Below are positions 13,842-36,140 of a stretch of 49,826 nucleotides of DNA, in pieces (position 1 is the first letter of the stretch; each line of letters begins with the position of its first letter). The notes under the pieces are model-generated. The model was not told where the DNA came from and made no database searches. It saw nothing but the letters and a program-made list of their open reading frames with translations. The stretch is from Actinomycetota bacterium (GTDB lineage: Bacteria > Actinomycetota > Acidimicrobiia > Acidimicrobiales > Ilumatobacteraceae): assembly GCA_043755475.1 (NCBI GenBank), contig JAYUSX010000439.1, positions 1-49,826 of the forward strand, in the 5' to 3' direction. The translations under genes and the position numbers were made by a program.

Positions 13842-15088
13842 GGGCGACGTGCCCGCACCGGGAGCGACTCGATGCCGTTCACGAAGTTCGACTTCACGTG
13901 ACGTGGCTCGCCGATCACCTCGATCGTCGTGTCGCTCCGGACGATCTCGTCGATCAGGATCGCGAGCTCGAGCCGGGCCAGCGAGGCGCCCAGGCAGAAG
14001 TGCACGCCGCCGCCGCCGAATGCCACGTGTGCCGGTGTGCGGGGACGCTGGACATCGAACCGCTGCGGATCGGCGAACACCGCTTCGTCGAAATTGGCTG
14101 AGGCGTACCACATCACCACCTTCTCGCCGGCGGTGATCGGCGTGCCGGAGAGAACGGTGTCGACGGTGGCCGTCCGACGGAAGTACAAGATCGGCGACGA
14201 GAAGCGGATGACCTCGTCGACTGCCTGGTCGAGCAGTGCCGGATTGCGGCGGACCATCGCGAACTGCTCGGGGTGCTCGGTCAGGTGCACCGCGAGATGG
14301 GCCATCGACGATCTTGTCGTCTCGTTGCCGGCGAAGATCATCAGCTGGAAGAAGCGGGCGAAGTCGGTCTCGCTCAGCTGCTCGCCATCGATCTCCACCG
14401 TTGCCAGGAGCGAGAGCAGGTCGTCGGCCGGCGCGTCCAATCGCTGACGGCGGGCGCGACACGCGTAGTCGTAGACGCCGAAGGCAGCAGGGCTGTTGAA
14501 CGGCAGTTCCCTGAGAGGCGTCGTGTTGCCGTACGCGCTGGGGTCGAGTTCTTCGCCCGAGGTGCCGGCAACGAGATGGTCGCTCATCTCGATCATCAGG
14601 TCGTGATCGCCGGCGGGCACGCCCAGGATGTCGCAGATGACACCGATGGGGATCGGCGCGGCGACGTCGGTCACCCAGTCACCCTCTCCCACGGCGACGA
14701 GCCGGTCGAGCAGATCGCGCACCCGCACGCGGATCGCTGCCTCGTGTGCCTGCACGTGCCTCGGCGTGAAGGCGGCGCTGACGAGTCGCCGCAGACGGGT
14801 GTGCACCGGCGGGTCGAGATCGATCATCGACGCACGCACGCGGCGCACGTCTTCGTCCACGTCGTAGATCTGGATGTGCCCCAGCTCGGACGAGTACGTG
14901 GTCGCGTCGCGCGAGACCGCGACGAGGTCGGCCATCCGACCGACCGACCAGAACCCCTTCGTCGTCGAGGTGTCCGGCGTCCACACGAGCCCGGGCTGGG
15001 CGCGCATGGTCGCGAACACGTCGTGCGGAATGCCACGGTCGTACAGCGCAGGATCTGCGAGATCGGCCGGTGCCAAGGGACGGGACAT
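13838..15088 (-). CDS. Cytochrome P450 (CYP124/125/142-like omega-hydroxylase type)
   Basis: Heme loop FGGGGVHFCLGASLARLE, I-helix AGNETTRS, C-terminal SNFVNG. Paralogous to the P450 at 20066..21310. Confidence 0.9.
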   Translation of the reverse strand: MSRPLAPADLADPALYDRGIPHDVFATMRAQPGLVWTPDTSTTKGFWSVGRMADLVAVSRDATTYSSELGHIQIYDVDEDVRRVRASMIDLDPPVHTRLRRLVSAAFTPRHVQAHEAAIRVRVRDLLDRLVAVGEGDWVTDVAAPIPIGVICDILGVPAGDHDLMIEMSDHLVAGTSGEELDPSAYGNTTPLRELPFNSPAAFGVYDYACRARRQRLDAPADDLLSLLATVEIDGEQLSETDFARFFQLMIFAGNETTRSSMAHLAVHLTEHPEQFAMVRRNPALLDQAVDEVIRFSSPILYFRRTATVDTVLSGTPITAGEKVVMWYASANFDEAVFADPQRFDVQRPRTPAHVAFGGGGVHFCLGASLARLELAILIDEIVRSDTTIEVIGEPRHVKSNFVNGIESLPVRARRP

Positions 15089-16323
15089 CAGGTCCGGGCC
15101 TCGACCACATCGCGCGTGCGGGCGACGATGTCGCGCTGCACCACGCTGCCGCCGATCCGGTGCAGCGTGGGAAGAGCCGACGCCAACAGCTGCGTCGCCC
15201 GGTCGTCGTCGAGCTCACCCGCGGCGCGGATGCCCGCCACCAGCGGCACCACGGTGTCGCGGAACGTGATGTCGTTGTAGGTCACTCCCGTCGCATGCGC
15301 GTCGACCACGCCGGTCCAGAACGCCGAAGCTCCGGGGTGGTCGGCCACTGCTGCGAACGCGAACGCGGCATGCATGTCGAGGAACGCACACGTGTGCCGT
15401 TGCCGGTTGGCCGACCAGGAATCGGCGAGCGCGGCCCACCGTTCCATGGTGTCGACCACTCCCCCGCTGGCGAGGTCGATGCGCCACAGCAACGAGGTCG
15501 AGTCGGAGAGCCCGAACGCGGTGGTGGAGTGCAGGTGATCGTCGAAGACCGCCAGCGCCCCGTCGAGATCGCCGTGTTCGAGCAGACGCAGCGCGAGGTG
15601 CCACCACACGTGGTTGCTCAGGAGCGTCTGCTGCTGCCATCGGTCGGTGGACGGCACCAGGAGCTCGATCGCGTCGGCGTGTCGCCCTGCACTCTCGAAG
15701 ACGTGGGCGAGCGCATGTCGCGCCCACAGGTCGTCCGGATCGGCCTCGAGCGCTGCCGAGCCGTGCTCGACGGCCTCGTCATAGCGGCCCACTTCCTCGA
15801 GCGCGAACGCGAACATGCCGGCGGCCAGCCCATGCTCGCGGGAACCGACCGGAAAGGCAGCCGCAGCACGTTCGGCCGAGGGCAGGCGCATCGTGTCGTC
15901 ACCGATGTGCAGGCACACATCGTGCAGGAAGCGGTAGGCGGGGAAGTCGTCAGGATGGTCGAGCGTGATCCCGCGCCACGTGGCCACCGCCTCGAGGAAC
16001 TCGCCTCGGTACAGCTGGATCGCTGCCTCCGCGTGACGACGCTCGCGCTCGTCGGTGCGGGGCGAACGCTCATCCAGTCGCAACCGGTCGAGCGCGACCG
16101 CCGGATCTGATGGGTCGACGCCTCCGAGCACGCGGTACGTGAGGGTGAAGACGGGCCCCATCACGAAGGCCTCGTCGAGCGCGTTCACGCTGTCGAGCGT
16201 GGCGACCGGATCGCCGCGGAAGTGAGCCAGCTGATCGAACGCCGACCACCAGGCATGACGCGAGGCATCGTCGCGAGCGCCCACGCTCGGGCCGAACACG
16301 CCGTTCACCTGATCGTCGGCCAC
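15088..16323 (-). CDS. Tetratricopeptide repeat protein (TTC38-like family)
   Basis: TPR-like helical sequence. TGATG 1-nt overlap with the downstream P450. Start proposed at GTG 16323, which lies 7 nt downstream of a TATCAT -10-like hexamer and would be leaderless. The longer ORF to 17193 is antisense to P450-2. Confidence 0.65.
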   Translation of the reverse strand: MADDQVNGVFGPSVGARDDASRHAWWSAFDQLAHFRGDPVATLDSVNALDEAFVMGPVFTLTYRVLGGVDPSDPAVALDRLRLDERSPRTDERERRHAEAAIQLYRGEFLEAVATWRGITLDHPDDFPAYRFLHDVCLHIGDDTMRLPSAERAAAAFPVGSREHGLAAGMFAFALEEVGRYDEAVEHGSAALEADPDDLWARHALAHVFESAGRHADAIELLVPSTDRWQQQTLLSNHVWWHLALRLLEHGDLDGALAVFDDHLHSTTAFGLSDSTSLLWRIDLASGGVVDTMERWAALADSWSANRQRHTCAFLDMHAAFAFAAVADHPGASAFWTGVVDAHATGVTYNDITFRDTVVPLVAGIRAAGELDDDRATQLLASALPTLHRIGGSVVQRDIVARTRDVVEART

Positions 16324-16326
16324 GGC

Positions 16327-16376
16327 TTGGATGATATTTGATACTTGATAGCGTCCGAACCGTCGTGGGGACGACG
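16327..16376. promoter_or_regulatory. AT-rich divergent promoter island between the TTC38 operon and the P450/ADH/GS operon
   Basis: TTGGATGATATTTGATACTTGATAGCGT stands out in a GC-rich background. Direct TTGATA repeats at 16338-16343 and 16345-16350. Minus-strand TATCAT at 16331-16336. Possible plus-strand TTGGAT-16nt-TAGCGT. Hairpin CGTCGTggggACGACG at 16361-16376. Confidence 0.4.
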
Positions 16377-16410
16377 CCGCGCCGGCACCACGGGCAGGAA
16401 AGGGGGAGCG

Positions 16411-17568
16411 ATGGATGACATGACGAAGCGCCCACGGTACGACTTCGACTTCCACGGAGCCGCCCTCGACACGATCTTCGACGACTACGAGGCGATGCAT
16501 CGCGAGTGCCCCGTGTCGTGGAGCGGCCACTACGGCGGTTTCTGGACGCTCACCCGCTACCACGACGTGCACGCCGCGGAGCACGACTGGGACACGTTCT
16601 CCGTCGCCCCGTCGATGATCCTGCCGTCGTTCGGCACCGATCGCCCCCTCATCCCGCTCGACATCGACCCACCGGCGCTCACTCCGTATCGCCAGATCCT
16701 CCTGCCGTTCTTCACACCCCAGAAGATGGACGACCTCTTGCCGCGCACCCACGCGCTGGCACGAGAGCTCCTCGACGACGTGCAGGACCAAGAGGTCTTC
16801 GACGCAGCCCCGTACTGTCGAATGCTCCCGGCGATGGTCTTCGGCGAGTACTGCGGGTTCCCGATGCACGATGCCGCTCAGTTCGACGTGTGGGTCGATG
16901 CCATCGTGTTCGCTCGCTCCGACGACGAGTCCGTTGCCCGCCAGGCGGCGGTCGAGGTCTACGACTACTTCCGCGATCTGATCGCTCACCGACGTCGCAG
17001 TCCCGGAGCCGATGTGATCTCGTCGCTGATCGCCGCCGATCACGCGGGCCGTCCACTGAGCGACGACGAGATGCTCGACATCTGCTACTTGTTGTTCGTC
17101 GCCGGGCTCGAGACCACCGCGGGAACCATCCGGGCCGGCCTGTGGTACCTCGGCCAGCATCCCGACGAGCTCGCTCGCCTTGCTGCCGACCACAGCCGGA
17201 TCCCTGCGGCGACCGAGGAGTTCCTGCGCGCGCTCTCACCCGTGCAGGCGATGGCACGCACCTTGAAGCAGGACACCGTCATCGACGGCATCGCGATGAG
17301 GGCGGGCGAGCGGGTCGTGCTCGCATTCGGTGCCGCCAACCGCGACCCTGAGCGATTCGAATGCCCGTACGAGGTACAGCTCGATCGGGCATCGAACCCA
17401 CACACCGCCTTCGGAGCCGGTGCTCACCGATGCCTCGGGAGCAACCTCGCCCGCCGAGAGGTGAACGTGGCGCTGGAGGAGATGATCGTGCGCCATCCCA
17501 GGTTCGAACTGGCCGAGGCGGCTCCATGGCATGGCATCGGACCACTGCTGCTGCGACCACTCCCCTGA
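16411..17568 (+). CDS. Cytochrome P450
   Basis: ATG 16411 preceded by AAAGGGGGAG. Heme loop FGAGAHRCLGSNLARRE; I-helix VAGLETTAG. Confidence 0.9.
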   Translation: MDDMTKRPRYDFDFHGAALDTIFDDYEAMHRECPVSWSGHYGGFWTLTRYHDVHAAEHDWDTFSVAPSMILPSFGTDRPLIPLDIDPPALTPYRQILLPFFTPQKMDDLLPRTHALARELLDDVQDQEVFDAAPYCRMLPAMVFGEYCGFPMHDAAQFDVWVDAIVFARSDDESVARQAAVEVYDYFRDLIAHRRRSPGADVISSLIAADHAGRPLSDDEMLDICYLLFVAGLETTAGTIRAGLWYLGQHPDELARLAADHSRIPAATEEFLRALSPVQAMARTLKQDTVIDGIAMRAGERVVLAFGAANRDPERFECPYEVQLDRASNPHTAFGAGAHRCLGSNLARREVNVALEEMIVRHPRFELAEAAPWHGIGPLLLRPLP

Positions 17569-17571
17569 GAC

Positions 17572-17615
17572 GACCGACCATTCACCTGACCGACCATTCA
17601 CCTGACCGACCTACC
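17572..17615 (+). repeat. Tandem 16-nt repeat GACCGACCATTCACCT x2 plus partial third copy in the P450-ADH intergenic leader
   Basis: Read directly from the sequence. G-poor on the sense strand. Confidence 0.8.
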
Positions 17616-17632
17616 GAGAGAAGCAACACACG

Positions 17633-18592
17633 ATGAAAGCCATCGAACTGCAGACGTTCAACAGTCCCCTCGTCGCGGTCGAGCGGCCCATCCCCACGAT
17701 CGCTGCCGGCGAAGAGCTGATCGACGTGACGGCGTGCGGTGTCTGTCACTCCGACATCCACGTGGTCGACGGACTGTTCGGAAGCCCGCTGCCGCTGATC
17801 CCCGGCCATGAGGTCACCGGCGTGCACCATCAGCTCGGACCGGTGATGGTGTACGCCCCGTGGGGGTGCCGCAACTGCTGGATCTGCGAGAGCGGCCACG
17901 AGATGATCTGCCCCGACGGCGCCGAGGCCGGACTCTTCCGAGACGGTGGCTATGCCGAGCAGATGCGGGTCACCCATCGTGAGTACCTGCAGCCGATCGG
18001 CGACCTCGATCCGGTCGCGTCGGCGCCGCTCGCGTGCGGAGGGCTCACCGCATTCCGGGCCACCAAGCACGCCCTCGAGACGCTGCGACGCCGGGGCTCA
18101 GCCGCACGCGCGTTGGTGATCGGCGCCGGTGGCCTCGGCCAGTTCGGCATCCAGTACCTGCGGATGATGAGCGACGCCGAGGTGTGGGTGGCCGACCCTG
18201 CACCTGCAAAGCAGCAACGGGCGCTCGAACTCGGCGCCAGCGGCGCCGTGACCGCCGACGAGCTCGATGGCAGGTTCGACGCGATCATCGACTTCGTCGG
18301 CGCCCAGCCCACGCTCGAGGCTGCCGTGCAGCGAGTGAACCGTCGTGGCATCGTGATCGCCGTCGGCCTGTACGGCGGTCGGGTGCCGTTCGGTGTGGGC
18401 GCGGTGCCGCACGAGGCCCAGTTCATGTCGAGCATCTGGGGTACCGTCGCCGAACTCGGCGAGCTGATCGCCTTCGCCCATCGTCACCCCATCCAATACA
18501 CCGTGGAGTCGGTCGCGCTCCAGGACGCCGAGCTGGCCCACCAGCGCCTGCGTGCCGGCGACGTCGCCGGCCGACTGGTGCTCGTTCCCTGA
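17633..18592 (+). CDS. Zinc-dependent alcohol dehydrogenase (MDR family)
   Basis: GVCHSDIH, PLIPGHEVTG, and GAGGLGQFG Rossmann motif. Confidence 0.9.
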   Translation: MKAIELQTFNSPLVAVERPIPTIAAGEELIDVTACGVCHSDIHVVDGLFGSPLPLIPGHEVTGVHHQLGPVMVYAPWGCRNCWICESGHEMICPDGAEAGLFRDGGYAEQMRVTHREYLQPIGDLDPVASAPLACGGLTAFRATKHALETLRRRGSAARALVIGAGGLGQFGIQYLRMMSDAEVWVADPAPAKQQRALELGASGAVTADELDGRFDAIIDFVGAQPTLEAAVQRVNRRGIVIAVGLYGGRVPFGVGAVPHEAQFMSSIWGTVAELGELIAFAHRHPIQYTVESVALQDAELAHQRLRAGDVAGRLVLVP

Positions 18593-18657
18593 GGTGTCGG
18601 CATCCGATACCCCGACGACCGCCCCTCCCCCACCATCGACTGAACCAAGGAGCCGGG

Positions 18658-20001
18658 ATGCCCTCCCCACGCCTCGACGAGATCGCCGCCCTCATCGCCC
18701 ACGAAGGCGTGCACACGGTCGAGCTCGCCACCATCGACACGTACGGCCACCTTCGCGGCAAGCGGGTGCCGGCCGGCCGCTTCATCCGCACCGTCGCCGA
18801 GCACGGCGCGCACATCGCCGACGCAATCTACGTCATGGACGTGCAGTGTGAGATCGTCGACAGCCCGCTGATCAACATGGGGGCGGGGTTCCTCGACATG
18901 CACCTCGAACCCGACCTGTCGACCTTCCGGCTGCTGAAGCACCGGCCCGGATACGCAACGGTGATGTCGAACAGCATCGACCACGAGCACAAGCCTCATC
19001 CGCTCGACCCGCGCAACGTGTTGCAGGCCCAGGTCGACCGAGTGAACGCCCTCGGCTACGACCCGATCGCGGCGACCGAGCTCGAGTGCTACGTCTGCAA
19101 CGACGACTGGACACCCGTCCAGTCAAACGTGCAGTACTCCTCGCTGATCGACAACTTCCCCCTCGAGCGGTGCGTCGCCGACATGCGCTCCGCGCTGCTC
19201 GACCTCGACATCCCTTTGGAGTCGTCGAACCCCGAGTACGGGCCGGGCCAGCTCGAGATCAACTTCGGCCCGGCCGACCCGATGCGCACCGCCGACAACA
19301 CCATCTTGTTCAAGGCCACGGTGAAAGAGGTGGCTCGCGCCCACGGTTTTCGGGCGACGTTCATGCCCAAGCCGTACGCGGGTCAGTCCGGCAATGGCAT
19401 GCACGTGCACACGAGCCTGTCGAAGGACGGTCGGAACGTGTTCGACGGCGGTGATGGCCACCTCTTGAACGACGTGTTCCGCCACTGGGTGGGTGGCCTG
19501 ATCCACCATGCCCGATCCATCAGCCTGATGGGCATTCCGATGGGCAACGGATACAAGCGGGTGCGGCCCTACACGTTCTGCCCCACTCACGCTCACTGGG
19601 GCGGCGACAACCGCAGTGTGCTGTGCCGCTGCACGGTGGGCCAGGGCCAGGCGAATCGGGTCGAGTTCCGTGGTGCCGGCGCGGACGCCAACCCGTACCT
19701 CATCGTCGCTGCGCTCCTCGCCGCAGGTGCCGACGGCCTCGAGCGCCAACTCGACCCCGGCCCGCAAGCCCTGGGCGACCAGTACGACGATCCGGGGGAT
19801 CACCCGCTGCTGCCGGCGACCTTCGCCGAGGGCGTCAGCGCGTTCGCCGGCAGCTCGCTGGCAGCGTCGTTGGGCGAGGAGTTCGGCGTGAACTTCCTCG
19901 CCCTCACCACCAACGAGCTCGCACGGTACGAGGCGAGCGCCGGCGGCGACATCGACGACGTGACCGAGTGGGAGTTCGCCCGCTACGTCGAGTTCACCTG
20001 A
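18658..20001 (+). CDS. Glutamine synthetase family protein (gamma-glutamyl-amine ligase type, PuuA/GlnA3-4/IpuC-like)
   Basis: ATG 18658 preceded by AAGGAG. Catalytic-domain signature NPEYGPGQLEINF...FMPKPYAGQSGNGMHVHTSL. Confidence 0.88.
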   Translation: MPSPRLDEIAALIAHEGVHTVELATIDTYGHLRGKRVPAGRFIRTVAEHGAHIADAIYVMDVQCEIVDSPLINMGAGFLDMHLEPDLSTFRLLKHRPGYATVMSNSIDHEHKPHPLDPRNVLQAQVDRVNALGYDPIAATELECYVCNDDWTPVQSNVQYSSLIDNFPLERCVADMRSALLDLDIPLESSNPEYGPGQLEINFGPADPMRTADNTILFKATVKEVARAHGFRATFMPKPYAGQSGNGMHVHTSLSKDGRNVFDGGDGHLLNDVFRHWVGGLIHHARSISLMGIPMGNGYKRVRPYTFCPTHAHWGGDNRSVLCRCTVGQGQANRVEFRGAGADANPYLIVAALLAAGADGLERQLDPGPQALGDQYDDPGDHPLLPATFAEGVSAFAGSSLAASLGEEFGVNFLALTTNELARYEASAGGDIDDVTEWEFARYVEFT

Positions 20002-20065
20002 ACCCACCCACCGCGAGACACCCGCACCACCCGCAACCCGCAACTCCTGGAACGAGCACCTGCCC

Positions 20066-21310
20066 ATGGTCGACATCGCCAGCCCCGAGCTCTACGAGCG
20101 CAGCGGCATCCCGCACGACGAGTTCGCCCGGCTGCGCCGGGAAGAACCCGTGGTGTGGCACGACTGGGAGTGCTCGCGCGGCGGGTTCTGGGCGGTCACC
20201 ACTCGAGATGACGTCACGACGGTCACCCGCGACTGGCACACCTACACCTCGGCCGAGTTCACCAACCTGTTCGAGCTGAGCGCCGCAGCAAAGGTCGCCC
20301 GCAAGTCGCTGATCGACACCGACGGCGCCGAGCACACTCGCCTCCGCCGACTGGTCACGCCGCCGTTCACCATGCGTCGCACGGGCGACTACGACGCCGT
20401 TGCCCGCGGCATCACCAATGGTCTGCTCGATGCGATGCTCGAGAGCGGTTCCGGCGGCAGTGGCGTCGATGTGGTGAAGATGTTGTCGGAGCCCTTGCCC
20501 ATCCAAGTGATCGTCAGCATCCTGGGTGTCCCCGCGGCAGACGCCGACTTCATGGTCGAACTCTCGAACCAACTCGTCGAAGGCACCTCGCACCGCGAGG
20601 TCGACCCCCATGCATACGGCAACACCACCCCACTCGAACTCCTGCCGTTCAACAGCCCGGCATCGCATGCGCTGTTCGAGTACGGGCGCGGCCTGCATGC
20701 CGAGCGCTCCACGTGCCCAGCCGACGATCTGGTCGGCAAGTTGGTCACCGCCGAGATCGACGGCGATCGGCTGACCGATCAGGAGTTCTGCAACTTCTTC
20801 CAGTTGCTGGTCTTCGCCGGCAACGAGACCACCCGCACTGCGATCTCGCAGGGCATCCATCACCTCATGATGTACCCCGATCAGCAGGAGCGACTGCATG
20901 CCGATCCGTCGCTCATCCCGACGGCGGTGGAGGAGATCATCCGGTGTGGCGTGCCCGTGCTGCACATGCGCCGCACCGCGACCACCGATGCCACACTGCG
21001 CGACAAGCAGGTGCGTGAGGGCGACTGGGTCGTGCTCTGGTACGCATCGTCGAACTTCGACGAACAGATCTGGCCGGATTCACGCTCGTTCGACGTCGGC
21101 CGCGCACCGAAGCCCGATCACACGTCGTTCGGCGCCTTCGGGCCACACCACTGCCTCGGTGCACCGCTCGCCCGGTTGGAATTGCGCTTGATGCTGGAGG
21201 AGATCGTGCGCCGTGGGGTTCGGTTCGCGCCGGCGGGTGAACCGGTGCGAGTGGCGAGCAACTTCGTCAACGGCATGCTCCACCTACCGGCCACGGTCAC
21301 CGCTGCCTGA
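20066..21310 (+). CDS. Cytochrome P450 (CYP124/125/142-like), paralog of 13838..15088
   Basis: Heme loop FGAFGPHHCLGAPLARLE, AGNETTRT, SNFVNG. Collinear similarity to P450-1 across the full length. Confidence 0.9.
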   Translation: MVDIASPELYERSGIPHDEFARLRREEPVVWHDWECSRGGFWAVTTRDDVTTVTRDWHTYTSAEFTNLFELSAAAKVARKSLIDTDGAEHTRLRRLVTPPFTMRRTGDYDAVARGITNGLLDAMLESGSGGSGVDVVKMLSEPLPIQVIVSILGVPAADADFMVELSNQLVEGTSHREVDPHAYGNTTPLELLPFNSPASHALFEYGRGLHAERSTCPADDLVGKLVTAEIDGDRLTDQEFCNFFQLLVFAGNETTRTAISQGIHHLMMYPDQQERLHADPSLIPTAVEEIIRCGVPVLHMRRTATTDATLRDKQVREGDWVVLWYASSNFDEQIWPDSRSFDVGRAPKPDHTSFGAFGPHHCLGAPLARLELRLMLEEIVRRGVRFAPAGEPVRVASNFVNGMLHLPATVTAA

Positions 21311-25144: not shown

Positions 25145-26395
25145 TCAGGAGGCAGCGAGTTGCAGGTCGGCGACCGCTGCGCGGCCGTCGATCGCGGCAC
25201 GCCAGTTGCGAGCGCGGATCGTCAGCAGCCAGAATCCGACCAGGCCGATCACCGCACCCGTCGCGAACGCGACGTGGAGGTTGATCAGGTCGCCGATCGC
25301 TCCGATGAACAGGAGGCCGAGACCGTAGGTGATGCCGAACGTGGCCTGCATCAGCGACATCACCCTGCCGCGGCTGGCCGGTGGTGCATCGCGCTGGATC
25401 ACCGCTGAGAGGGTGATGAACAAGCTCGACCATGCGCCACCGAGCACGAAGATCACCGCGATCAACCACGTCAGGGTCGGGGCGAATGCGTAGGCGACGA
25501 GGAGGGTGCATACGGCGAGAACGGCGCCGACGACCAGGGTCGAACGGGCGAATCGCTGGGCCAGGAACGAGATCAGGATGCCGCCGATGATGGCGCCGAC
25601 CCCCTGGGCAGAGGCGACGAGGCCGACCATCCCGGTGCCGCCGTCGTAGTTGCCCTGCACGTAGATCGGCACCAGGCCCATGAACGGGACGAGCATGCAG
25701 TTCAAGAGGGCGAGCATCACGAGCGCGTGCCAGCAACCGGGCGTGGCACGCAACGCTTGTGTGCCAGCGCCGAGCCGCTCACGCACGGTTCCGGAGTCCC
25801 CATGTGGCGTGAAGGAGCGACGGACGGCCACCACGGCGCCGGCCATCACCACGAACGACACGGCGTTGAACGCGATCGTCCACGCCGGGCCGACGACGAG
25901 GACGAGCAACGACCCCAGGATCGGACCCAGCACTCGACCGCTGTTCCACGAGTAGACGCCGAGCGACACCATCTGCATCAGCTCGCGCGGCGGCACGAGG
26001 TCGGGCTGCATCGCTGCGTACGATGGAGCGCCGATGGCGCCTGCGGCGCTCCCGATCAGGATCAACAGCGTCAGCACCCAAGGAGTTCGCACCCCGGTGC
26101 CGATGACGACCGCCAGCACGGAGGTGACCGTTGCCTGTGCCATCAATGCCGATGCGAACACGCGACGACGGTCGAAGCGGTCAGCGAGCAGCCCGCCGAT
26201 TGGTGAGGCGATGCCCTGAGGCATGAACGTGGCGAGCGCGACGAGGCCGGTCTGCAGGGCGCTGCCGGTGCCGGATGCAACCAGGCTGCCGACCACGATC
26301 AACTGCACCCAGGTGCCGATGTCGCTCACCACGGCGGCACCCCACAGCAGGCGCACCGCACGGTGGCGCAGGGGGACGAACGGGTGGTTGCTCAC
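25145..26395 (-). CDS. MFS transporter (MFS_3 / enterobactin-exporter-like)
   Basis: 12 predicted TM segments. N-terminus PLRHRAVRLLWGAAVVSDIGTWVQ is typical of this family. Confidence 0.85.
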   Translation of the reverse strand: MSNHPFVPLRHRAVRLLWGAAVVSDIGTWVQLIVVGSLVASGTGSALQTGLVALATFMPQGIASPIGGLLADRFDRRRVFASALMAQATVTSVLAVVIGTGVRTPWVLTLLILIGSAAGAIGAPSYAAMQPDLVPPRELMQMVSLGVYSWNSGRVLGPILGSLLVLVVGPAWTIAFNAVSFVVMAGAVVAVRRSFTPHGDSGTVRERLGAGTQALRATPGCWHALVMLALLNCMLVPFMGLVPIYVQGNYDGGTGMVGLVASAQGVGAIIGGILISFLAQRFARSTLVVGAVLAVCTLLVAYAFAPTLTWLIAVIFVLGGAWSSLFITLSAVIQRDAPPASRGRVMSLMQATFGITYGLGLLFIGAIGDLINLHVAFATGAVIGLVGFWLLTIRARNWRAAIDGRAAVADLQLAAS

Positions 26396-26551
26396 GACGC
26401 TCCGACGATACCGAGCGGTCCAGGCGCCACTCGGGTTGGTTGCCGCGCGTCACACCGCGCCGCGCCGAACGCTCGCGTGAACCGCCGCGCAATCCGTGAA
26501 CGTAGGCTCCACCCGGGTGCGGGGGCACCCGACGAGCTCCTTGGGGGAACG

Positions 26552-28792
26552 ATGAGCGATGGTCAGGCGCGTCGGCTGGGTCGCACCATGGTGGAGAGCG
26601 ATCCGTTCTGGGATCTGGAGCCGACGCCCCCGGCGGGCACCCCCAACGTCATCTACTGCGTGTTCGACGACGTCGGGTACTCCGACTTCGGCTGCTACGG
26701 CTCCGAGATCGCGACACCGAACATCGATGGTCTCGCGGCCGGCGGCCTCCGATACACGAACTTCCACACCACCTCGCTCTGCTCGCCGACCCGAGCTTCG
26801 TTGCTCACCGGCCGCAACCATCACGCCGTCGGCATGGGCACGTTGGCGAACTACGACCTCGGCTTCGACGGCTACCGAGGCGCCATCTCACGCGAGGCGG
26901 CAATGCTGCCGGAGATCTTGCGCGAGCAGGGTTGGAACAGCTTCGCCGTGGGCAAGTGGCACCTGACGCCGATGCATCACACGGGTCCTGCGGGCCCGTT
27001 CTACCAATGGCCGACCCAACGTGGCTTCGACCGCTTCTACGGGTTCATGGACGGGGCGATGAACCACTGGGAGCCCTTCCTCACCGAGGACAACCACCAC
27101 ATCCCCACTCCCGACACGCCGGGCTACCACCTCACCACCGACTTGATGGATCGGGCGATCCGGCTCGTTCGCGATCAACGGTCGGTGGCACCCGAGAAGC
27201 CGTTCTTCCTGTACCTCGCCTTTGGCGCCGGCCATTCGCCGCACCACGTCCCGAGGGAGATGATCGACGCGTACGTGCCGGTGTTCGAGCAGGGGTGGGA
27301 CGTCACCCGTCGCGACCGTCTCGAGCGACAGAAGTCGCTCGGTCTCGTCCCGCAGACGACGGAGCTGCCGCCGCGCAACCCGGGCGTGCCCGTGTGGGAC
27401 GAGCTGTCCGAGCGCGAACAGCGTCTGTTCGTCCGATTCCAGGCGGCGTTCGCAGCGATGGTCACGCACTCCGATCGCGAGATCGGCCGCATGATCCAGA
27501 TGCTCGAAGCGGTCGGCGCGCTCAGCAACACGGTCTTCGTGGTGATGAGCGACAACGGCGCATCGCAGGAGGGCAGTCACGCAGGCACCCTGCACCAGGG
27601 CCGCTACTTCGAGCGGGCGCCGATGACGCTCGACCAGTCGATCGACTTGATCGACGAGATCGGCGAGACGCAGTGGTTCAACAACTACCCGCTCGGCTGG
27701 GCGATGGCCGGCAACACGCCGTGCAAGTTCTACAAGCAGAACACCCACGGCGGCGGCGTGCGCGACCCGCTCGTGATCCACTGGCCGGCAGGGCTGCCGT
27801 CCGCAGCGGCGGGCACGATGCGGCACCAGTTCCACCACGTGAGCGACCTCACGCCGACGGTGCTCGACATGGTCGGTGCGGTGCTGCCGCCCACCGTGAA
27901 CGGCATCGCCCAGATGCCGCTGCACGGCACACCGATGACCTACACGTTCGCCGCACCCGAGGCGCCGACGCGCAAACCGGTGCAGCACTTCGAGATGCTC
28001 GGCCATCGCGGGATCGTGGCCGACGGCTGGAAGGCCGTCACCATGCACGATGCGCGCTCGTCGCTCGACGAGGACCGCTGGGAGCTGTACCACCTCGACG
28101 AGGACTTCTCCGAGACGGTCGATCTCGCCGAGCAGCATCCCGAGGTGCTGGCGGCGCTCGTCGATCGTTGGTGGGAGGAGGCGGCCAAGTACAACGTGCT
28201 GCCGGTCGACGACCGGGCCGGCGGCGGCATGCGCAAGCGGCGGCCGGTGCGCACGTCGTGGACATTGTGGCCGGGGCTCGAACGCGTGCCATCGGATGCT
28301 GCGCCGCGACTGCAGAACACCAGCCACACGATCTCGGCGTACATCACCGTGCCTGCCGGTGGGTGCGCGGGTGCGCTGATCACCGATGGCGATCGTTGGG
28401 GCGGCTACGCGATGTTCGTGCAGGACGGCAAGCCCTGCTTCCACTACCACTTCCCTCTGGAGCGACACGAGATCCGTGGTGCGGACGCGTTGACCCCTGG
28501 GGATCACACCATCACGTGGACGCTCACCAAGATCGACCGCGCCAGTGGGTACGGCGACCTGTGGGTCGACGGTGTGAGCGTCGGATCCGTCGAGATTCCG
28601 CGGATCATCCGCGGCTGGATGCCCTTCGGGGGCATGAACGTCGGCTGTGACAACACTGCACCGGTCGGCACGACATACGAGTCACCGTTCCCCTTCACCG
28701 GTGTGCTGCACCGCGTCGAGGTAGAGCTCCTCGGCGACGACCCCGGCCCCGACCGCACATCCGAGCACCGTTCCGAGATGGGCAAGCAGTGA
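26552..28792 (+). CDS. Arylsulfatase (formylglycine-dependent, AtsA-like, with C-terminal extra domain)
   Basis: ATG 26552. Sulfatase signature LCSPTRASLLTGRNHH (CxPxR). No signal peptide seen. Confidence 0.9.
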   Translation: MSDGQARRLGRTMVESDPFWDLEPTPPAGTPNVIYCVFDDVGYSDFGCYGSEIATPNIDGLAAGGLRYTNFHTTSLCSPTRASLLTGRNHHAVGMGTLANYDLGFDGYRGAISREAAMLPEILREQGWNSFAVGKWHLTPMHHTGPAGPFYQWPTQRGFDRFYGFMDGAMNHWEPFLTEDNHHIPTPDTPGYHLTTDLMDRAIRLVRDQRSVAPEKPFFLYLAFGAGHSPHHVPREMIDAYVPVFEQGWDVTRRDRLERQKSLGLVPQTTELPPRNPGVPVWDELSEREQRLFVRFQAAFAAMVTHSDREIGRMIQMLEAVGALSNTVFVVMSDNGASQEGSHAGTLHQGRYFERAPMTLDQSIDLIDEIGETQWFNNYPLGWAMAGNTPCKFYKQNTHGGGVRDPLVIHWPAGLPSAAAGTMRHQFHHVSDLTPTVLDMVGAVLPPTVNGIAQMPLHGTPMTYTFAAPEAPTRKPVQHFEMLGHRGIVADGWKAVTMHDARSSLDEDRWELYHLDEDFSETVDLAEQHPEVLAALVDRWWEEAAKYNVLPVDDRAGGGMRKRRPVRTSWTLWPGLERVPSDAAPRLQNTSHTISAYITVPAGGCAGALITDGDRWGGYAMFVQDGKPCFHYHFPLERHEIRGADALTPGDHTITWTLTKIDRASGYGDLWVDGVSVGSVEIPRIIRGWMPFGGMNVGCDNTAPVGTTYESPFPFTGVLHRVEVELLGDDPGPDRTSEHRSEMGKQ

Positions 28793-29686: not shown

Positions 29687-31132
29687 TCAGCCCCAGGAGC
29701 CGGTTGCCCAGCTGGAGCCGGACCACAACGTGCCCGACCACGACGACCCGGACCACGACGACCCGGACCAGCTCGAGCCGTTCCACATCCCACCGGACCA
29801 GCTGGATCCGGCGGTGCCGGGCAGAAACGGCCGCCCGAAGATGTCGACTTCGCCTGAGAGAGCAACGCCGTCACGGATGATGCGGTCGTTTCCTCGGGCG
29901 GCTTCCACGCTGCCGGTGCCCGTCGAGGCCGGGTAGATCTGTGGCTGGGTTGCGGCGGGTGTGATGGTCGCCAGCGACCGGAAGTCGATGGCACCTCTGC
30001 CCTGGGTGTTGGCGTGGACGTTGGCGATCTGGTCGGCCGTACTCCTCATGAATCGCTTCACCTGATCCGGGAGCATCGAGGGGTACTTCTGGAGCAGCAA
30101 CGCGACCGCACCGGAGGTGACTGCAGCGGCCTGGGAGGTGCCACTGCCACGGAAGAACCGCGAGCCGAGGACACCCTCGGCGTGACGGCTGTCGAGGAAC
30201 GAGTTCGACACCCTCAGACCCTGGAGACGGGAGCCGGCGGCGATGACGTCGGGCTTGCGGTCCGTGATGCTGGTCGAGCTGGCCGAGTACGTCCCGATCA
30301 CGTCGTCGAGGGTGGTGGCGGTGCCTTTGGTGTCGAACCCGCCGACGGCGATGATCGACGGATTGAACGCCGGGTTCGCGAGGCCGGGCGCTCCCGCACC
30401 CTGCTGGAAGCCGGAGTTCCCGGCGGCGGCGACCACGACGATGCCCGCCTTCCAGGCCCGCTCGACAGCGAACGACAGCGGGTCGATCAGCGACGACTGG
30501 GTCGAGTTCGTCCCGTAGGAGATGTTGAGGACCCGGATGTTCATCCCATTGTCGGTCTTGTGGTCGACCACCCAGTTGATGGCCGCGATCATCTGCGTCA
30601 CATCGACACCGCCATCGGCGGTCGCGACCTTGATCGACACGATCCGGGCGTCCGGCGCGATCCCACGGTACGTGGATGCAGGTGCGTTCTTGTACGGGGC
30701 CGTCAGCGTCGAGTCCTTGCCCGCGATCAGACCGGCCATGAACGTCCCGTGGCCATTGGTATCGCGCTGGGCGAAGTTCGGCGACTGCGACTCCAACGAC
30801 AGATCGGGTCCGTAGATGATCTTGCCCGGCGTTGCCAGCCCTTCGACCGGCACGACCCCGGTGTCGATCACAGCAACATCGATCCCGGCGCCGGTGTAGC
30901 CCTGGTCCCAGAACGCGGTAACGCCCGAGATCGCGGTCAACGACTTCATCGAGTACCCATCGGTCGCCGGGTCGTACGCTGCGGCGGCAACAGGTGTCGC
31001 GCCGAGCGCCGGCACAGCGGTCGCACACAACACGAGCGCCGCTGCAGATTTCGCCGCGAGTGACCGCAGACCCCGAGCAGAGGTCCTGCCCCACGAAGCC
31101 CCTCGCATGACCTTGTTTGTGATCCGTGCCAT
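29687..31132 (-). CDS. Secreted S8 (subtilisin-like) serine peptidase with C-terminal Trp-rich SSWSG repeat tail
   Basis: Catalytic triad contexts VIDTGV, HGTFMAG and GTSQAAA. Signal peptide. C-terminus SSWSGGMWNGSSWSGSSWSGSSWSGTLWSGSSWATGSWG. Start is ATG 31132 or 31108. Confidence 0.9.
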   Translation of the reverse strand: MARITNKVMRGASWGRTSARGLRSLAAKSAAALVLCATAVPALGATPVAAAAYDPATDGYSMKSLTAISGVTAFWDQGYTGAGIDVAVIDTGVVPVEGLATPGKIIYGPDLSLESQSPNFAQRDTNGHGTFMAGLIAGKDSTLTAPYKNAPASTYRGIAPDARIVSIKVATADGGVDVTQMIAAINWVVDHKTDNGMNIRVLNISYGTNSTQSSLIDPLSFAVERAWKAGIVVVAAAGNSGFQQGAGAPGLANPAFNPSIIAVGGFDTKGTATTLDDVIGTYSASSTSITDRKPDVIAAGSRLQGLRVSNSFLDSRHAEGVLGSRFFRGSGTSQAAAVTSGAVALLLQKYPSMLPDQVKRFMRSTADQIANVHANTQGRGAIDFRSLATITPAATQPQIYPASTGTGSVEAARGNDRIIRDGVALSGEVDIFGRPFLPGTAGSSWSGGMWNGSSWSGSSWSGSSWSGTLWSGSSWATGSWG

Positions 31133-31416
31133 CAGTTCGCGCCTCTTCCGTGATCCCGTCGACCCGCCCTGGTGTGCGGAGCGGCAGGAGGCATTCAAGA
31201 ACACCACGTCAGAAAAGGCCACAGCTCGGAGCGAACCTTGCGCAACCTGTGAGGTTCTTGACCCGGCCCACACAAACCACCCACCGACGGTCCGCCCGAG
31301 CCGACGAGATCCCACGCAGCGAGACCACCTGCGCTCCTCTCGACGGGTGTCACCCGACGGGCCTGCTGGCCTCGAACCGGGTGTCGTGCATCAGTTGCGC
31401 ATCGGCGATCCGGTGC

Positions 31417-32049
31417 TCACGAACTGGCGTCGGTGAGCATCTCGTCGAGCGTCGCTTCGTCGACGGCGCCCAACATCACGTTTGCCGCACCATCGGGGCC
31501 GACGACGACGAGCGCCGGTTGGCCGGGCACGCCGAACCGCTGGAACACCTCGCCGGGATCGTCGCTGATCTGCGGGAACGTCAGGCCGTGCTTGTCGATG
31601 AACCCCTGGAAGGACTCCTCGTCACCCGTCCACGCGACGCCGATGAAGTCCACTGTGCCGGCCCACCTCTGTGCTGCGCCCTCGACCGAAGGCGCTTCTC
31701 GATTGCACGTGCTTCAAGTGGGCGCCCAGAACCAGAAGGCGGTCGTCCGTCCCGCCGCAGCCGCGCCGCTGAACTCGCCACCTCCGACGAGGGGAGCCGT
31801 GAAGTTCAACAGCTCCGGAACAGCGGCAGGCGCCGCTGATGTGGCGGCCGGTTGCCCCGGCGCCGCAGTGCCGGCCACCTGATCCGGCGTCGTCGAGCCC
31901 GACACCTCGGGCACGGGAGCGGGCGCTGTCGCCGCTGCTGGCGAGTCGGCCTGGGCATCGACGGTCGATTCGCTGGACGACCCACACGAAGCGAGGAGCG
32001 AAATCGACGCCACGAGGGCGAGACCGCACATGACACGACGGTTCCTCAT
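31417..32049 (-). CDS. TlpA/ResA-like thioredoxin-fold lipoprotein interrupted by a single in-frame TGA (31714-31716) at the first Cys of CxxC: candidate selenoprotein (UxxC) or nonsense pseudogene
   Basis: ORFs 31714..32067 and 31417..31653 share one frame. Read-through gives FWFWAPT-TGA-STCNREAP... followed by a typical Trx-fold C-terminal half. Lipobox LLASC. Confidence 0.6.
31676..31695 (-). promoter_or_regulatory. SECIS-like hairpin 19-38 nt downstream of the in-frame UGA
   Basis: In the mRNA sense: GCGCCUUC-GGUC-GAGGGCGC, an 8 bp stem including one G.U, closed by a GGUC tetraloop as in the E. coli fdhF SECIS apex. Confidence 0.45.
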
Positions 32050-32120
32050 TCGAACAGGTTCACACACTCAGGCGCCCGACGACCTGCACGAGGCAAGAGT
32101 TTCGCGATCGTTTCGATCTT

Positions 32121-32228
32121 CACAGCTGGAACTCCACAGCCAGAACTCCACAGCCAGAACTCGACAGAACTCGACAGCCAGAACTCGACAGCTGGAACTC
32201 CACAGCTGGAACCCCTGAGCTGGAACTC
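32121..32228. repeat. Array of eight tandem 14-bp units (CACAGCTGGAACTC / CACAGCCAGAACTC variants, one 10-bp unit) in a divergent intergenic region
   Basis: Unit boundaries were counted directly: 32121, 32135, 32149, 32163, 32173, 32187, 32201, 32215. Confidence 0.85.
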
Positions 32229-33846: not shown

Positions 33847-34995
33847 TCAGCTCAACCTGGGTTGTTGTTGCGTGGCGCAGTGGATGCCACCGCCGCCAGC
33901 GGCAAGCGCGTCGATGTCGAGCATCACGATCTCGCGGTCGGGGAACAGCTGGGCCAACACCGCTCGGGCTGCCTCGTCTGCAGCCCCGTCCCCGAACTCG
34001 GGCGCGATGACGGCGCCATTGCACACGTAGTAGTTCATGTAGGTGGACAGGAAGTCGTTGCCAGTCCAGCGGACGTCCATCGGTTGCGTCATCTCGACGA
34101 TGTCGTACGGCTGGCCGTCGATGGTGGTCGCTGCGGTCACGATCGACTTCGTCCTCGCCGCGACGGCGACCCATGGGTCGGCAGGGTCGTCGAAGGCGGG
34201 CGTGTCGACCACGATCGTGGAGGGATCGGCGAACCGGGCGAGGGTGTCGATGTGGCGGTCGGTGATGTCGGCGCCGGCCAGCCCGTCCACCCAGATCATC
34301 CGGTCGGCGCCGAGCATGTCCAGGATCGCAGCCTCGATGTCGCCGCGGGTCATGCCCGGGTTGCGGTTGTCGTTCACCCAGCAACTCTCGGCCAACAGCA
34401 CCGTGCCGCGGCCATCGACCTCGACGGCTCCGATTTCGCCGACCAGTCCGAACGCGAGCAGCGGGACGCCGAGCTGATCGGCGACCAAGGCGGCGAGCTG
34501 CGTATCACCGTCGTGGACCTGCTTGCCGCCCCAACCGTTGAACGTTGCATGTGCGGCCGCCATTTCGAGCGCCCCTGCCTCATTGGAACGCACGACGAAG
34601 TTGGGCAGGGTGTCGCGCGCCCACAGGTCGTCGACCGGAGCTTCGAGCACCTCGACACCGAACTCGAGGATCTCTCCGAGCGCCTCGATCTCCTCTGGCC
34701 TGGCGAGCATGGTCACCGGCTCGAAACGAGCGATCGCCGTGGCGATGCGGATGATCGCATCCTGGACGTCGACGAGATCGGGACCCCAGATCTGCTCGCT
34801 CGACGGCCAGCACATCCAGGTCTGCTGGTGTGGTTCCTCCTCGGCGGGCATCGACCACTGGTCCGCGCGCCCCGGATCGCTGACCGTCGCACGTGTCGCC
34901 TGGCCGGACGCGCCATTGGAGGTGCCAGTGGAGGTGCCGGCGGGGTCGGCCTCGCCGCAGCCGACCAGCAGCCCGCTGGCGACGAACAGCGGCAC
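33847..34995 (-). CDS. Exported agmatine deiminase / Porphyromonas-type peptidyl-arginine deiminase family lipoprotein
   Basis: WMCWP, DLWARDT and GGGGIHCATQQQP (catalytic Cys). N-terminus has lipobox LLVGC. A Tat-type signal (MSSLSRREFLVGV, ATG 35045) lies just upstream in another frame. Confidence 0.85.
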   Translation of the reverse strand: MPLFVASGLLVGCGEADPAGTSTGTSNGASGQATRATVSDPGRADQWSMPAEEEPHQQTWMCWPSSEQIWGPDLVDVQDAIIRIATAIARFEPVTMLARPEEIEALGEILEFGVEVLEAPVDDLWARDTLPNFVVRSNEAGALEMAAAHATFNGWGGKQVHDGDTQLAALVADQLGVPLLAFGLVGEIGAVEVDGRGTVLLAESCWVNDNRNPGMTRGDIEAAILDMLGADRMIWVDGLAGADITDRHIDTLARFADPSTIVVDTPAFDDPADPWVAVAARTKSIVTAATTIDGQPYDIVEMTQPMDVRWTGNDFLSTYMNYYVCNGAVIAPEFGDGAADEAARAVLAQLFPDREIVMLDIDALAAGGGGIHCATQQQPRLS

Positions 34996-35102: not shown

Positions 35103-36140
35103 ATGACCGAACCGCGAACAACCACCCCGACGTCTGCCGGCTTCGCGATGCCGGCAGAGTGGGAGCCTCACGCAGGCTGCCTGATGGCGTGGCCATCGCG
35201 AGCCGAGCTGTGGGGAGATCGGTTGGCCGATGCCACGCGTGACTACGCCGCGGTCGCCGACGCGATCGCAGCATTCGAACCCGTGCTGATGGTCTGCAGC
35301 CCTGGCCACGCGGGCGAGGTGGCCGATCGGTGCGGCGACGGCGTGACGCCGGTCGAGATCCCGATCAACGACTCATGGGCCCGCGACAGCGGCCCCGCAT
35401 TCGTGCGCAACGCCGCGGGCGAGGCGGCCGTCGTCGGGTTCGGGTTCAACGCGTGGGGCAACCGATGGCACCCGCACGACGACGACGCGCGCCTGTCGCG
35501 ACGGTTAGCCGACATCCTCGGACTGCCGTTCTTCGAGGCGCCGTTCGTCCTCGAAGGTGGGTCGTTCTTCGTCGATGGCGCCGGCACCGTCATCACCACC
35601 GAACAGTGCCTGCTCAACCCGAACCGCAACCCGCACCTGAACAAGCACCAGCTCGAGCAGGGCCTGTGCGACTTCCTCGGTGCCACAACCGTCATCTGGC
35701 TGCCGTTCGGTCACAGCCTCGACACCGGGCCGGCGGGCACCGACGGCCACGTCGATGGCGTCCTCCAGTACATCGCACCGGGCCGCGTGCTGCTCGAGGC
35801 GGTCTCGGATGACTCGTCACCGGAGTTCCGACGCGGTCAGGCGAACGTGGCTGCGCTCCAGGCGTCCGTCGATGCCGCCGGGCGCAACTTCGAGATCGTC
35901 ACCCTCGACCCCGGCCCCACCGCGACGGTGTCGTACGCCAACTACTACCTCGCGAACGGTGCGGTCATCGTCCCTGTGGGCGGTGACGATGCTGACGGTC
36001 CGGCGCTCAACCGGTTGCGGGCGGCGCATCCCGAACGCGTCGTCGTGGGCGTACCGGGCGAAACGCTCGCGTTCGGAGGAGGCGGGCCGCACTGCATCAC
36101 CCAGCAGATCCCGATCGGTGTCGAACTCCCCTCTCGATGA
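35103..36140 (+). CDS. aguA: Agmatine deiminase (cytoplasmic)
   Basis: FAMPAEWEPHAGCLMAWP, NDSWARDSGP and GGGGPHCITQQIP. Confidence 0.9.
   Translation: MTEPRTTTPTSAGFAMPAEWEPHAGCLMAWPSRAELWGDRLADATRDYAAVADAIAAFEPVLMVCSPGHAGEVADRCGDGVTPVEIPINDSWARDSGPAFVRNAAGEAAVVGFGFNAWGNRWHPHDDDARLSRRLADILGLPFFEAPFVLEGGSFFVDGAGTVITTEQCLLNPNRNPHLNKHQLEQGLCDFLGATTVIWLPFGHSLDTGPAGTDGHVDGVLQYIAPGRVLLEAVSDDSSPEFRRGQANVAALQASVDAAGRNFEIVTLDPGPTATVSYANYYLANGAVIVPVGGDDADGPALNRLRAAHPERVVVGVPGETLAFGGGGPHCITQQIPIGVELPSR

Follow-up and report, generated by a model that had tools for sequence, protein, structure and literature searches.

The window analysed here is a stretch of 49,826 nucleotides, positions 1 to 49,826 of contig JAYUSX010000439.1 (assembly GCA_043755475.1), which derives from an actinobacterial genome assigned to the Ilumatobacteraceae, and its minus strand carries a gene for a candidate selenocysteine (Sec)-containing thioredoxin-fold lipoprotein. 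Positions 32049..31417 form a single reading frame, the sole interruption of which is a TGA at 31716..31714. As an earlier note on this DNA had stated, two open reading frames (ORFs) at 32067..31714 and 31653..31417 lie in the same frame with this one TGA between them. Starting from the ATG at 32049, the product is 210 amino acids long, with the TGA codon (U in the read-through translation) at residue 112 and a Cys at residue 115. The following features were assigned.

31417..32049, minus strand: predicted complete selenoprotein coding sequence, with the start ATG at 32049, UGA at codon 112 and the true stop TGA at 31419..31417.
31984..32049, minus strand: putative signal peptide and lipobox (MRNRRVMCGLALVASISLLAS followed by C), with lipidation predicted at Cys22, assigned by inspection.
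31432..31818, minus strand: thioredoxin-fold (redoxin, DsbE/DsbF-like) domain, residues ~78-206, containing U112-S-T-C115.
31714..31716, minus strand: UGA proposed to be read as selenocysteine, residue 112, which aligns with the first Cys of CxxC.
31705..31707, minus strand: TGC codon of the putative resolving Cys115 of UxxC, TGY in 117 of 117 relatives.
31676..31695, minus strand: candidate selenocysteine insertion sequence (SECIS) hairpin, within the coding sequence, over the codons for A-P-S-V-E-G-A.

Translation through the TGA gives TAFWFWAPT*STCNREAPSVEG...DFIGVAWTG...GVPGQPALVVVGPDG, and the domain encoded by read-through also includes the stretch DFIGVAWTG...LTFPQISDD...GQPALVVVGPDG. 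The segment FWFWAPT-U-STC-NREAP is collinear with FWFWAPW-C-SxC-NREAP of homologues that contain Cys, and the TGA occupies the column of the first Cys of CxxC. Alignment with these homologues thus bore out the proposal that the codon falls at the nucleophilic position of the thioredoxin-fold signature. The N-terminus shows a positively charged n-region, a hydrophobic core and a lipobox (MRNRR-VMCGLALVASISL-LAS-C) that by inspection fits the pattern [LVI][ASTVI][GAS]C, and a linker rich in Pro, Ala and Thr extends from the lipobox to about residue 77. The LLASC lipobox and the linker had both been noticed before, and in the homologue alignment (A1) Cys22 of the lipobox, which directly follows LLAS, is invariant. 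Truncated gene calls for orthologues all carry lipoboxes of the form ...A[AST]C[GS]. These features suggest that the protein is a lipid-anchored extracytoplasmic thiol-disulfide oxidoreductase.

When the protein was compared with the PDB using phmmer, the best matches were Mycobacterium tuberculosis MPT53/DsbE (1LU4, E 3.5e-23) and DsbF (3IOS, E 4.7e-22), with ResA at ~1e-6. The alignments with 1LU4 and 3IOS run unbroken through the active site over ~120-130 residues, spanning domain residues 1-130 and including WFWxPWCxxCxxEAP. Homologues of the protein carry PF08534, PF00578 and PF13905. Only sub-threshold matches, to ResA, StoA, DsbE/CcmG and TlpA, were obtained with the NCBIfam models, and the scores lay far under the cut-offs (41.8 bits against 170 for ResA, 19.3 against 230 for TlpA and 23.3 against 123 for DsbE). 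None of the selenoprotein-specific models in NCBIfam matched the protein. The cytochrome c maturation reductants TlpA, ResA and CcmG/DsbE likewise have a membrane-anchored extracytoplasmic thioredoxin fold and the WxWCxxC signature. However, neither a CcdA/DsbD-like gene adjacent to the Sec gene, in the window or in the other loci examined, nor any cytochrome c biogenesis gene (ccdA, resB, ccsA) nearby was found, and with the low scores this led to rejection of an equivalog of ResA, TlpA or CcmG. Hence, the TlpA/ResA-like label in the earlier note holds for the thioredoxin-fold superfamily but not for TlpA/ResA proper, and, as judged by these matches, the nearest characterised relatives are DsbE and DsbF of M. 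tuberculosis.

The presence of two ORFs in the mechanically generated ORF list might mean that two products are made, namely a 111-amino-acid N-terminal lipoprotein ending at the UGA and a second protein started at GTG 31653. The break would then come midway through the thioredoxin fold and within the active-site motif, and the 60 nt between the TGA and GTG 31653 encode, in frame, the most conserved peptide of the family. As the PDB homologues also align continuously over this position, separate products are considered extremely unlikely.

TGA is the terminator of 22 of the 23 well-defined genes in the window; the genetic code is therefore standard, and any recoding at codon 112 would be site-specific. 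In the window itself, coding-like ORF pairs separated by an in-frame TGA were limited to two ordinary gene junctions, and a screen of ~1 Mb of related DNA for further in-frame TGA codons with a G[GU]-loop hairpin returned only noise-like matches without redox motifs.

Conservation of the TGA was assessed in three collections. A collection of 5.8 billion proteins was searched with the read-through sequence carrying C at the UGA position; relatives were sought in one genome per GTDB species, with the best 80 of 579 kept; and a separate scan of metagenome contigs was made, from which the 80 best relatives were kept. The patterns used in the metagenome scan left the codon unspecified. The protein collection returned full-length Cys homologues (FWFWAPWCSICNREA...) and also ~35 separate clusters of gene calls of 115-210 amino acids that end exactly at ...FWFWAPT, which corresponds to truncation at the same column. 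TGA was found at exactly this codon in 37 species-representative genomes, all from Ilumatobacteraceae or other metagenome-assembled genomes (MAGs) of Acidimicrobiia, in the pattern WFWAP-[T/W/F/G/Y]-TGA-x-x-TGY. These include a 92%-identical locus (L001, in MAG JANNQK01) and a complete 4.7-Mb chromosome (L048). The same codon is TGA in 80 of 80 best metagenome relatives, which share 45-75% amino-acid identity, bringing the total to 117 of 117 close relatives. More distant homologues (45 sequences, from Mycobacterium, Lentzea, Nonomuraea, Streptomyces and others) have TGC or TGT. The orthologue comparison called for by the earlier note thus showed TGA rather than TGC in all close relatives and Cys in distant ones.

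In 37 of 38 genome loci the frame downstream of the TGA continues without a stop for 97-104 codons, and tblastn matches cross the TGA to cover query residues 1-210 in relatives. The part encoded downstream of the TGA includes STCNREAPSVE, the best-conserved peptide of the protein. In two gene calls from Joint Genome Institute (JGI) metagenomes (P0001 and P0002), the orthologue runs to its full length and has W in place of Sec (FWFWAPTWSTCNREAP), presumably because gene calling on these short contigs used an alternative genetic code that reads TGA as Trp. Three of the loci also include a Cys paralogue (WFWAPWCSVCNREAP) directly upstream of the Sec gene, on the same strand and ~750 nt apart from it (L034 ~1628-2400, L036 ~9364-10100 and L037 ~6550-7320).

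The RNA downstream of the UGA can form the hairpin that was described in the earlier note, and its coordinates were verified. The 8-bp stem GCGCCUUC/GAGGGCGC closed by a GGUC loop occupies 31695..31676, 19-38 nt past the UGA, with 31695..31688 pairing with 31683..31676 and the apical loop at 31687..31684. On its own the hairpin has a folding energy of -13.5 kcal/mol, within a family range of -7.5 to -16.2. The published model for bacterial SECIS (bSECIS) elements specifies a loop of 3-9 nt, an upper stem of 4-16 bp, a G in the first two loop positions (G then G/U), 16-37 nt from the UGA to the apical loop, and a minimum free energy of -7.5 kcal/mol or lower (PMC13188914). The window hairpin agrees with the model in every respect, with a 4-nt loop, an 8-bp stem, GGUC, a distance of 26 nt and -13.5 kcal/mol. 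In most orthologues the stem has 7 bp plus one mismatch, while the loop spacing of 26 nt is identical in all relatives. A larger lower stem in the minimum-free-energy fold of the window is not conserved in relatives and was excluded from the element.

Two sequence sets were used for comparison: an ungapped alignment of 37 sequences (A2), and a pooled genome and metagenome set of 117 sequences that comprises 91 distinct 63-mers and 16 stem haplotypes. The hairpin is present in the same columns of every sequence in A2, from which it is recovered by RNAalifold, and is in register in all intact copies. The observed covariation score was matched by 0 of 500 shuffles, and when the partners were slid by 1-3 columns in A2, only 36-66% were paired. 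Among the 91 distinct sequences, stem pairs 1, 2, 3, 5, 6, 7 and 8 show no non-standard combination, with pair 3 occurring as C-G, G-C, U-A, A-U or U-G and pair 6 as C-G, U-A or U-G. Pair 4 is mostly a C.A or C.C mismatch, giving a 1x1 internal loop, but the window has C-G here, and a few other sequences have U-A or G-C.

Pairs 3 and 6 each link two third-codon positions, in Ala/Pro codons of the 5' arm and in Glu and Glu/Ala/Gly codons of the 3' arm. These positions are free of constraint from the protein sequence, yet they covary. The GGUC loop never varies among the 91 distinct sequences, even though synonymous change would be possible at two third-codon positions within it; the codons involved, TCG and GTC, make up 44% of Ser and 45% of Val codons in the window, and both are used at the loop in 91 of 91. 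Third positions just outside the hairpin vary freely. In the same register, the Cys homologues form a mean of 4.1 of 8 pairs and have no conserved loop, and the tandem Cys paralogues in L034, L036 and L037, despite encoding nearly the same peptide (CSVCNREAPTVESAA), form 3 of 8 pairs and lack a GGUC hairpin. As neither the Cys homologues nor the tandem paralogues have the hairpin, it is tied to the UGA rather than to the peptide. The hairpin therefore passed the covariation check that had been suggested for it, being conserved and covarying at synonymous sites and missing from Cys homologues.

The competing explanation named in the earlier note was a pseudogene, in which a TGC-to-TGA nonsense mutation has disrupted an ordinary CxxC lipoprotein gene of the DsbE/TlpA-like type. 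TGA and TGC differ by a single base, gene callers truncate the gene, and the Sec machinery is absent from the window, all of which speaks for a pseudogene. However, the TGA is kept in 117 of 117 close relatives despite divergence to ~50% identity, the downstream frame is intact with its protein sequence conserved, and an RNA structure specific to the TGA is conserved with covariation. Decay would yield neither a kept TGA, nor an intact frame, nor a covarying hairpin. A stop that persists in one column across lineages at ~50% identity, together with preservation of the downstream part of the protein, led to rejection of the pseudogene, which is judged very unlikely. The preference of the earlier note for a selenoprotein over a pseudogene is accordingly supported by the conserved TGA, the open frame and the covarying hairpin.

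The bases adjoining the UGA are also strictly conserved. The base 5' of the UGA (codon 31717-31719) is U in 84 of 91 distinct sequences, and this U is supplied by codons that are locally rare (ACT, 5.5% of Thr; TTT, 2.7% of Phe; TAT, 8% of Tyr; GGT, 19% of Gly). In 85 of 91, the UGA is followed by A (codon 31711-31713). Immediately ahead of the stem, Arg and Glu are mostly encoded by CGT and GAA, while CGC and GAG are preferred elsewhere. This suggests that selection acts on the immediate recoding context beyond the hairpin.

Because close relatives share both this UGA and the RNA hairpin that follows it, the UGA is taken to encode Sec. The gene is thus very probably an intact one for a selenocysteine-containing extracytoplasmic thiol-disulfide oxidoreductase that has been truncated by annotation pipelines, a conclusion that draws on comparative sequence data. 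Several observations weigh against it. ARAGORN found no tRNA-Sec in the 49.8-kb window or in 38 related loci, no selA, selB or selD was identified by Pfam among ~30 window ORFs, and the E. coli proteins SelA, SelB and SelD had no tblastn match in the window or in any fetched locus. The local fold within the window is unexceptional (z-score of -1.1 over 76 nt). A search of Rfam, whose SECIS models span few bacterial SECIS types, gave no match at gathering score in the window and no SECIS family up to E 10 on 31600-31780. In one 760-bp metagenome contig (L083, 407-409) the TGA is replaced by TTA (Leu) with the hairpin intact, and in L037, apparently a long-read MAG, the CCCCC run within the hairpin has lost 1 nt at ~7340, which shifts the frame. 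To these may be added two departures from the SECIS of E. coli fdhF, in which the loop starts 18 nt after the UGA rather than 26 nt and the stem has a bulged U that the window hairpin lacks.

As the single-window fold was unremarkable, the question was settled by the comparison with relatives. The TTA in L083 and the deletion in L037 look like sequencing errors or single variants. Since the sel genes were absent from the window and the fetched flanks, they are not linked to the Sec gene. The lineage uses Sec, as judged by cultured members: Ilumatobacter coccineus, with 15 selenoproteins, and I. nonamiensis, with 10, are both listed as positive for SelA, SelB and SelD (Peng et al. 2016; PMC5029168 Tables S1, S2). 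In Actinomarina, which belongs to an acidimicrobial lineage, selA, selB, selC and selD were reported to be universal (bioRxiv 10.64898/2026.04.03.716425).

A conserved recoding site with a SelB-type hairpin does not by itself identify the amino acid that is inserted. The residue could be Cys, delivered via SelB and a tRNA(Sec)-like tRNA, or Trp or Cys could be inserted by near-cognate read-through at a low level. Delivery through SelB of tRNA(Sec)-like tRNAs that have Cys identity was reportedly described in some bacteria by Mukai et al. in 2016, and the two JGI gene calls do show W at this position, although presumably as a result of the alternative genetic code. On the other hand, selA and selD accompany selB in cultured members of the lineage, and Sec classically occupies the nucleophilic position of a redox motif, where this UGA falls. 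TGC would suffice for Cys, as it does in the tandem paralogues, and a conserved GGUC hairpin is needless for simple read-through. Insertion of a residue other than Sec is therefore regarded as improbable.

If Sec is inserted, the hairpin 19-38 nt past UGA-112 would act as a bacterial SECIS during translation, a role suggested by conservation of the RNA element. SelB with GTP and Sec-tRNA(Sec) would bind the GGUC loop and insert Sec at the UGA in competition with release factor 2, while UGA elsewhere in the genome would serve as an ordinary stop. The 210-amino-acid product, on the basis of its N-terminal sequence, would be lipidated at Cys22 and tethered on the outer face of the membrane via the Pro/Ala/Thr linker. 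By homology, a Sec112-Cys115 pair would cycle between the selenenylsulfide and the selenol/thiol, exchanging disulfides with exported proteins. In this scheme Sec112 would be the attacking nucleophile in place of the N-terminal Cys of CxxC, with Cys115 resolving, and either an oxidant or a reductant role would be compatible with it.

The hairpin resembles the E. coli fdhF SECIS in lying inside the coding sequence just 3' of the UGA and in having an identical GGUC apical loop. The observation in the earlier note that the loop is fdhF-like, sits ~8 nt further downstream and is not accompanied by a bulged U was correct. Most orthologues differ further from fdhF in the 1x1 C.A or C.C internal loop at pair 4, and the base 5' of the UGA is C in fdhF but mostly U here. 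The element would thus function in the manner of the fdhF SECIS, with which it shares the loop sequence, but identity with the fdhF variant was rejected on the grounds of the missing bulged U and the different spacing.

Thioredoxin-fold selenoproteins with UxxC are among the commonest predicted in bacteria, and redoxin/TlpA-like members have already been catalogued (PMC13188914 Table 1, PMC2398784, PMC1088965, PMC1794560). Like the present protein, these have the same fold, Sec in place of the first Cys of CxxC, many Cys homologues and a bSECIS immediately downstream, and they too have members in marine, aquatic and soil metagenomes. They differ in that public gene calls for the present protein are still truncated. 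The present family is likely one of the catalogued families, represented by HEU0032618.1 ('Redoxin family protein') and MGB1650493.1 ('Thiol-disulfide isomerase-like protein'). M. tuberculosis DsbE (MPT53, Rv2878c; 1LU4) and DsbF (Rv1677; 3IOS) are likewise actinobacterial, exported or membrane-tethered proteins with a single thioredoxin-like domain, but have CxxC whereas the window protein has UxxC. In vitro, both are oxidants that fold hirudin oxidatively and have no insulin-reductase activity, and DsbD/Rv2877c has been proposed as their membrane partner (PMC3853704).

The window neighbours of the Sec gene are genes for an S8 peptidase, an SDR protein, a sulfatase and a GDPD phosphodiesterase, and two agmatine-deiminase-like genes. 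In most other Ilumatobacteraceae (L002-L037, examined from about -4000 to +1300 relative to the TGA), the Sec gene is part of a conserved block. Upstream, on the opposite strand, this includes genes for a dihydrolipoamide acyltransferase (E2), an Lpd-like pyridine-nucleotide-disulfide oxidoreductase and a 140-amino-acid membrane-anchored protein without a Pfam match, and downstream a gene for a YfcH-like epimerase (PF01370 and DUF1731). The window and L001 have another context, without the E2-Lpd block. As a clue to function, the neighbourhood is uninformative.

Further features were observed in the window. Between the selenoprotein gene and the divergent GDPD phosphodiesterase gene, at 32121-32228, there is a 14-nt tandem repeat (consensus CACAGCTGGAACTC) of ~8 copies with 81% matches. 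Comparison with L001 (7070-9356) revealed two additional window genes downstream of the Sec gene, at 29687-31315 and 26363-28792, which encode an S8 subtilase with a C-terminal SSWSG repeat and a sulfatase; L001 goes straight to SDR and MFS genes. The adjoining genes at 33847-34995 (minus strand) and 35103-36140 (plus strand) are divergent paralogues of the Porphyromonas-type peptidyl-arginine/agmatine deiminase family (PF04371). Both match the same stretch of L001, the second at 92% and the first at only 35%. The left part of the window (26-3520 and 13838-21310) includes a partial nonribosomal peptide synthetase module (condensation, adenylation, peptidyl carrier protein and thioesterase domains), three cytochrome P450 genes, a long ORF with a glutamine-synthetase catalytic domain (PF00120, Gln-synt_C) and an alcohol dehydrogenase gene. 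This region could be a secondary-metabolite locus unrelated to the Sec gene.

Both the recoding mechanism and the type of protein are already established, and nothing here overturns current understanding. The additions are modest and consist of the assignment to the DsbE/DsbF lineage, the lipoprotein anchoring, fixation across the Ilumatobacteraceae and the details of the SECIS context. A more speculative possibility, held only tentatively and considered doubtful, is that this is an uncatalogued selenoprotein family, a Sec form of the mycobacterial DsbE/DsbF-type oxidants that is fixed in aerobic Ilumatobacteraceae, lipid-anchored and often encoded beside a Cys paralogue. Such a family would have SECIS rules of its own, with U from a rare codon 5' of the UGA, a 1x1 internal loop in place of the bulged U and a spacing of 26 nt. 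If this were true, it would provide a natural system for the question of why Sec is used over Cys in oxidative folding in an oxic extracellular compartment.

For annotation, standard gene callers split or truncate the gene in public genomes and metagenome contigs that number well over a hundred, with the ~35 protein clusters mostly named 'hypothetical protein', and the full 210-amino-acid product should be labelled a selenoprotein. The set of 117 sequences represents a clean case of a SECIS embedded in coding sequence, with covariation confined to wobble positions and strict conservation of the bases surrounding the UGA, and could be used to train predictors of bacterial SECIS elements and selenoproteins. 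With respect to biology, a widespread family of aerobic actinobacteria from soil, freshwater and marine environments would appear to keep Sec in a cell-surface thiol-disulfide oxidoreductase, and the Cys paralogue beside the Sec gene in some of their genomes offers a natural Sec/Cys comparison.

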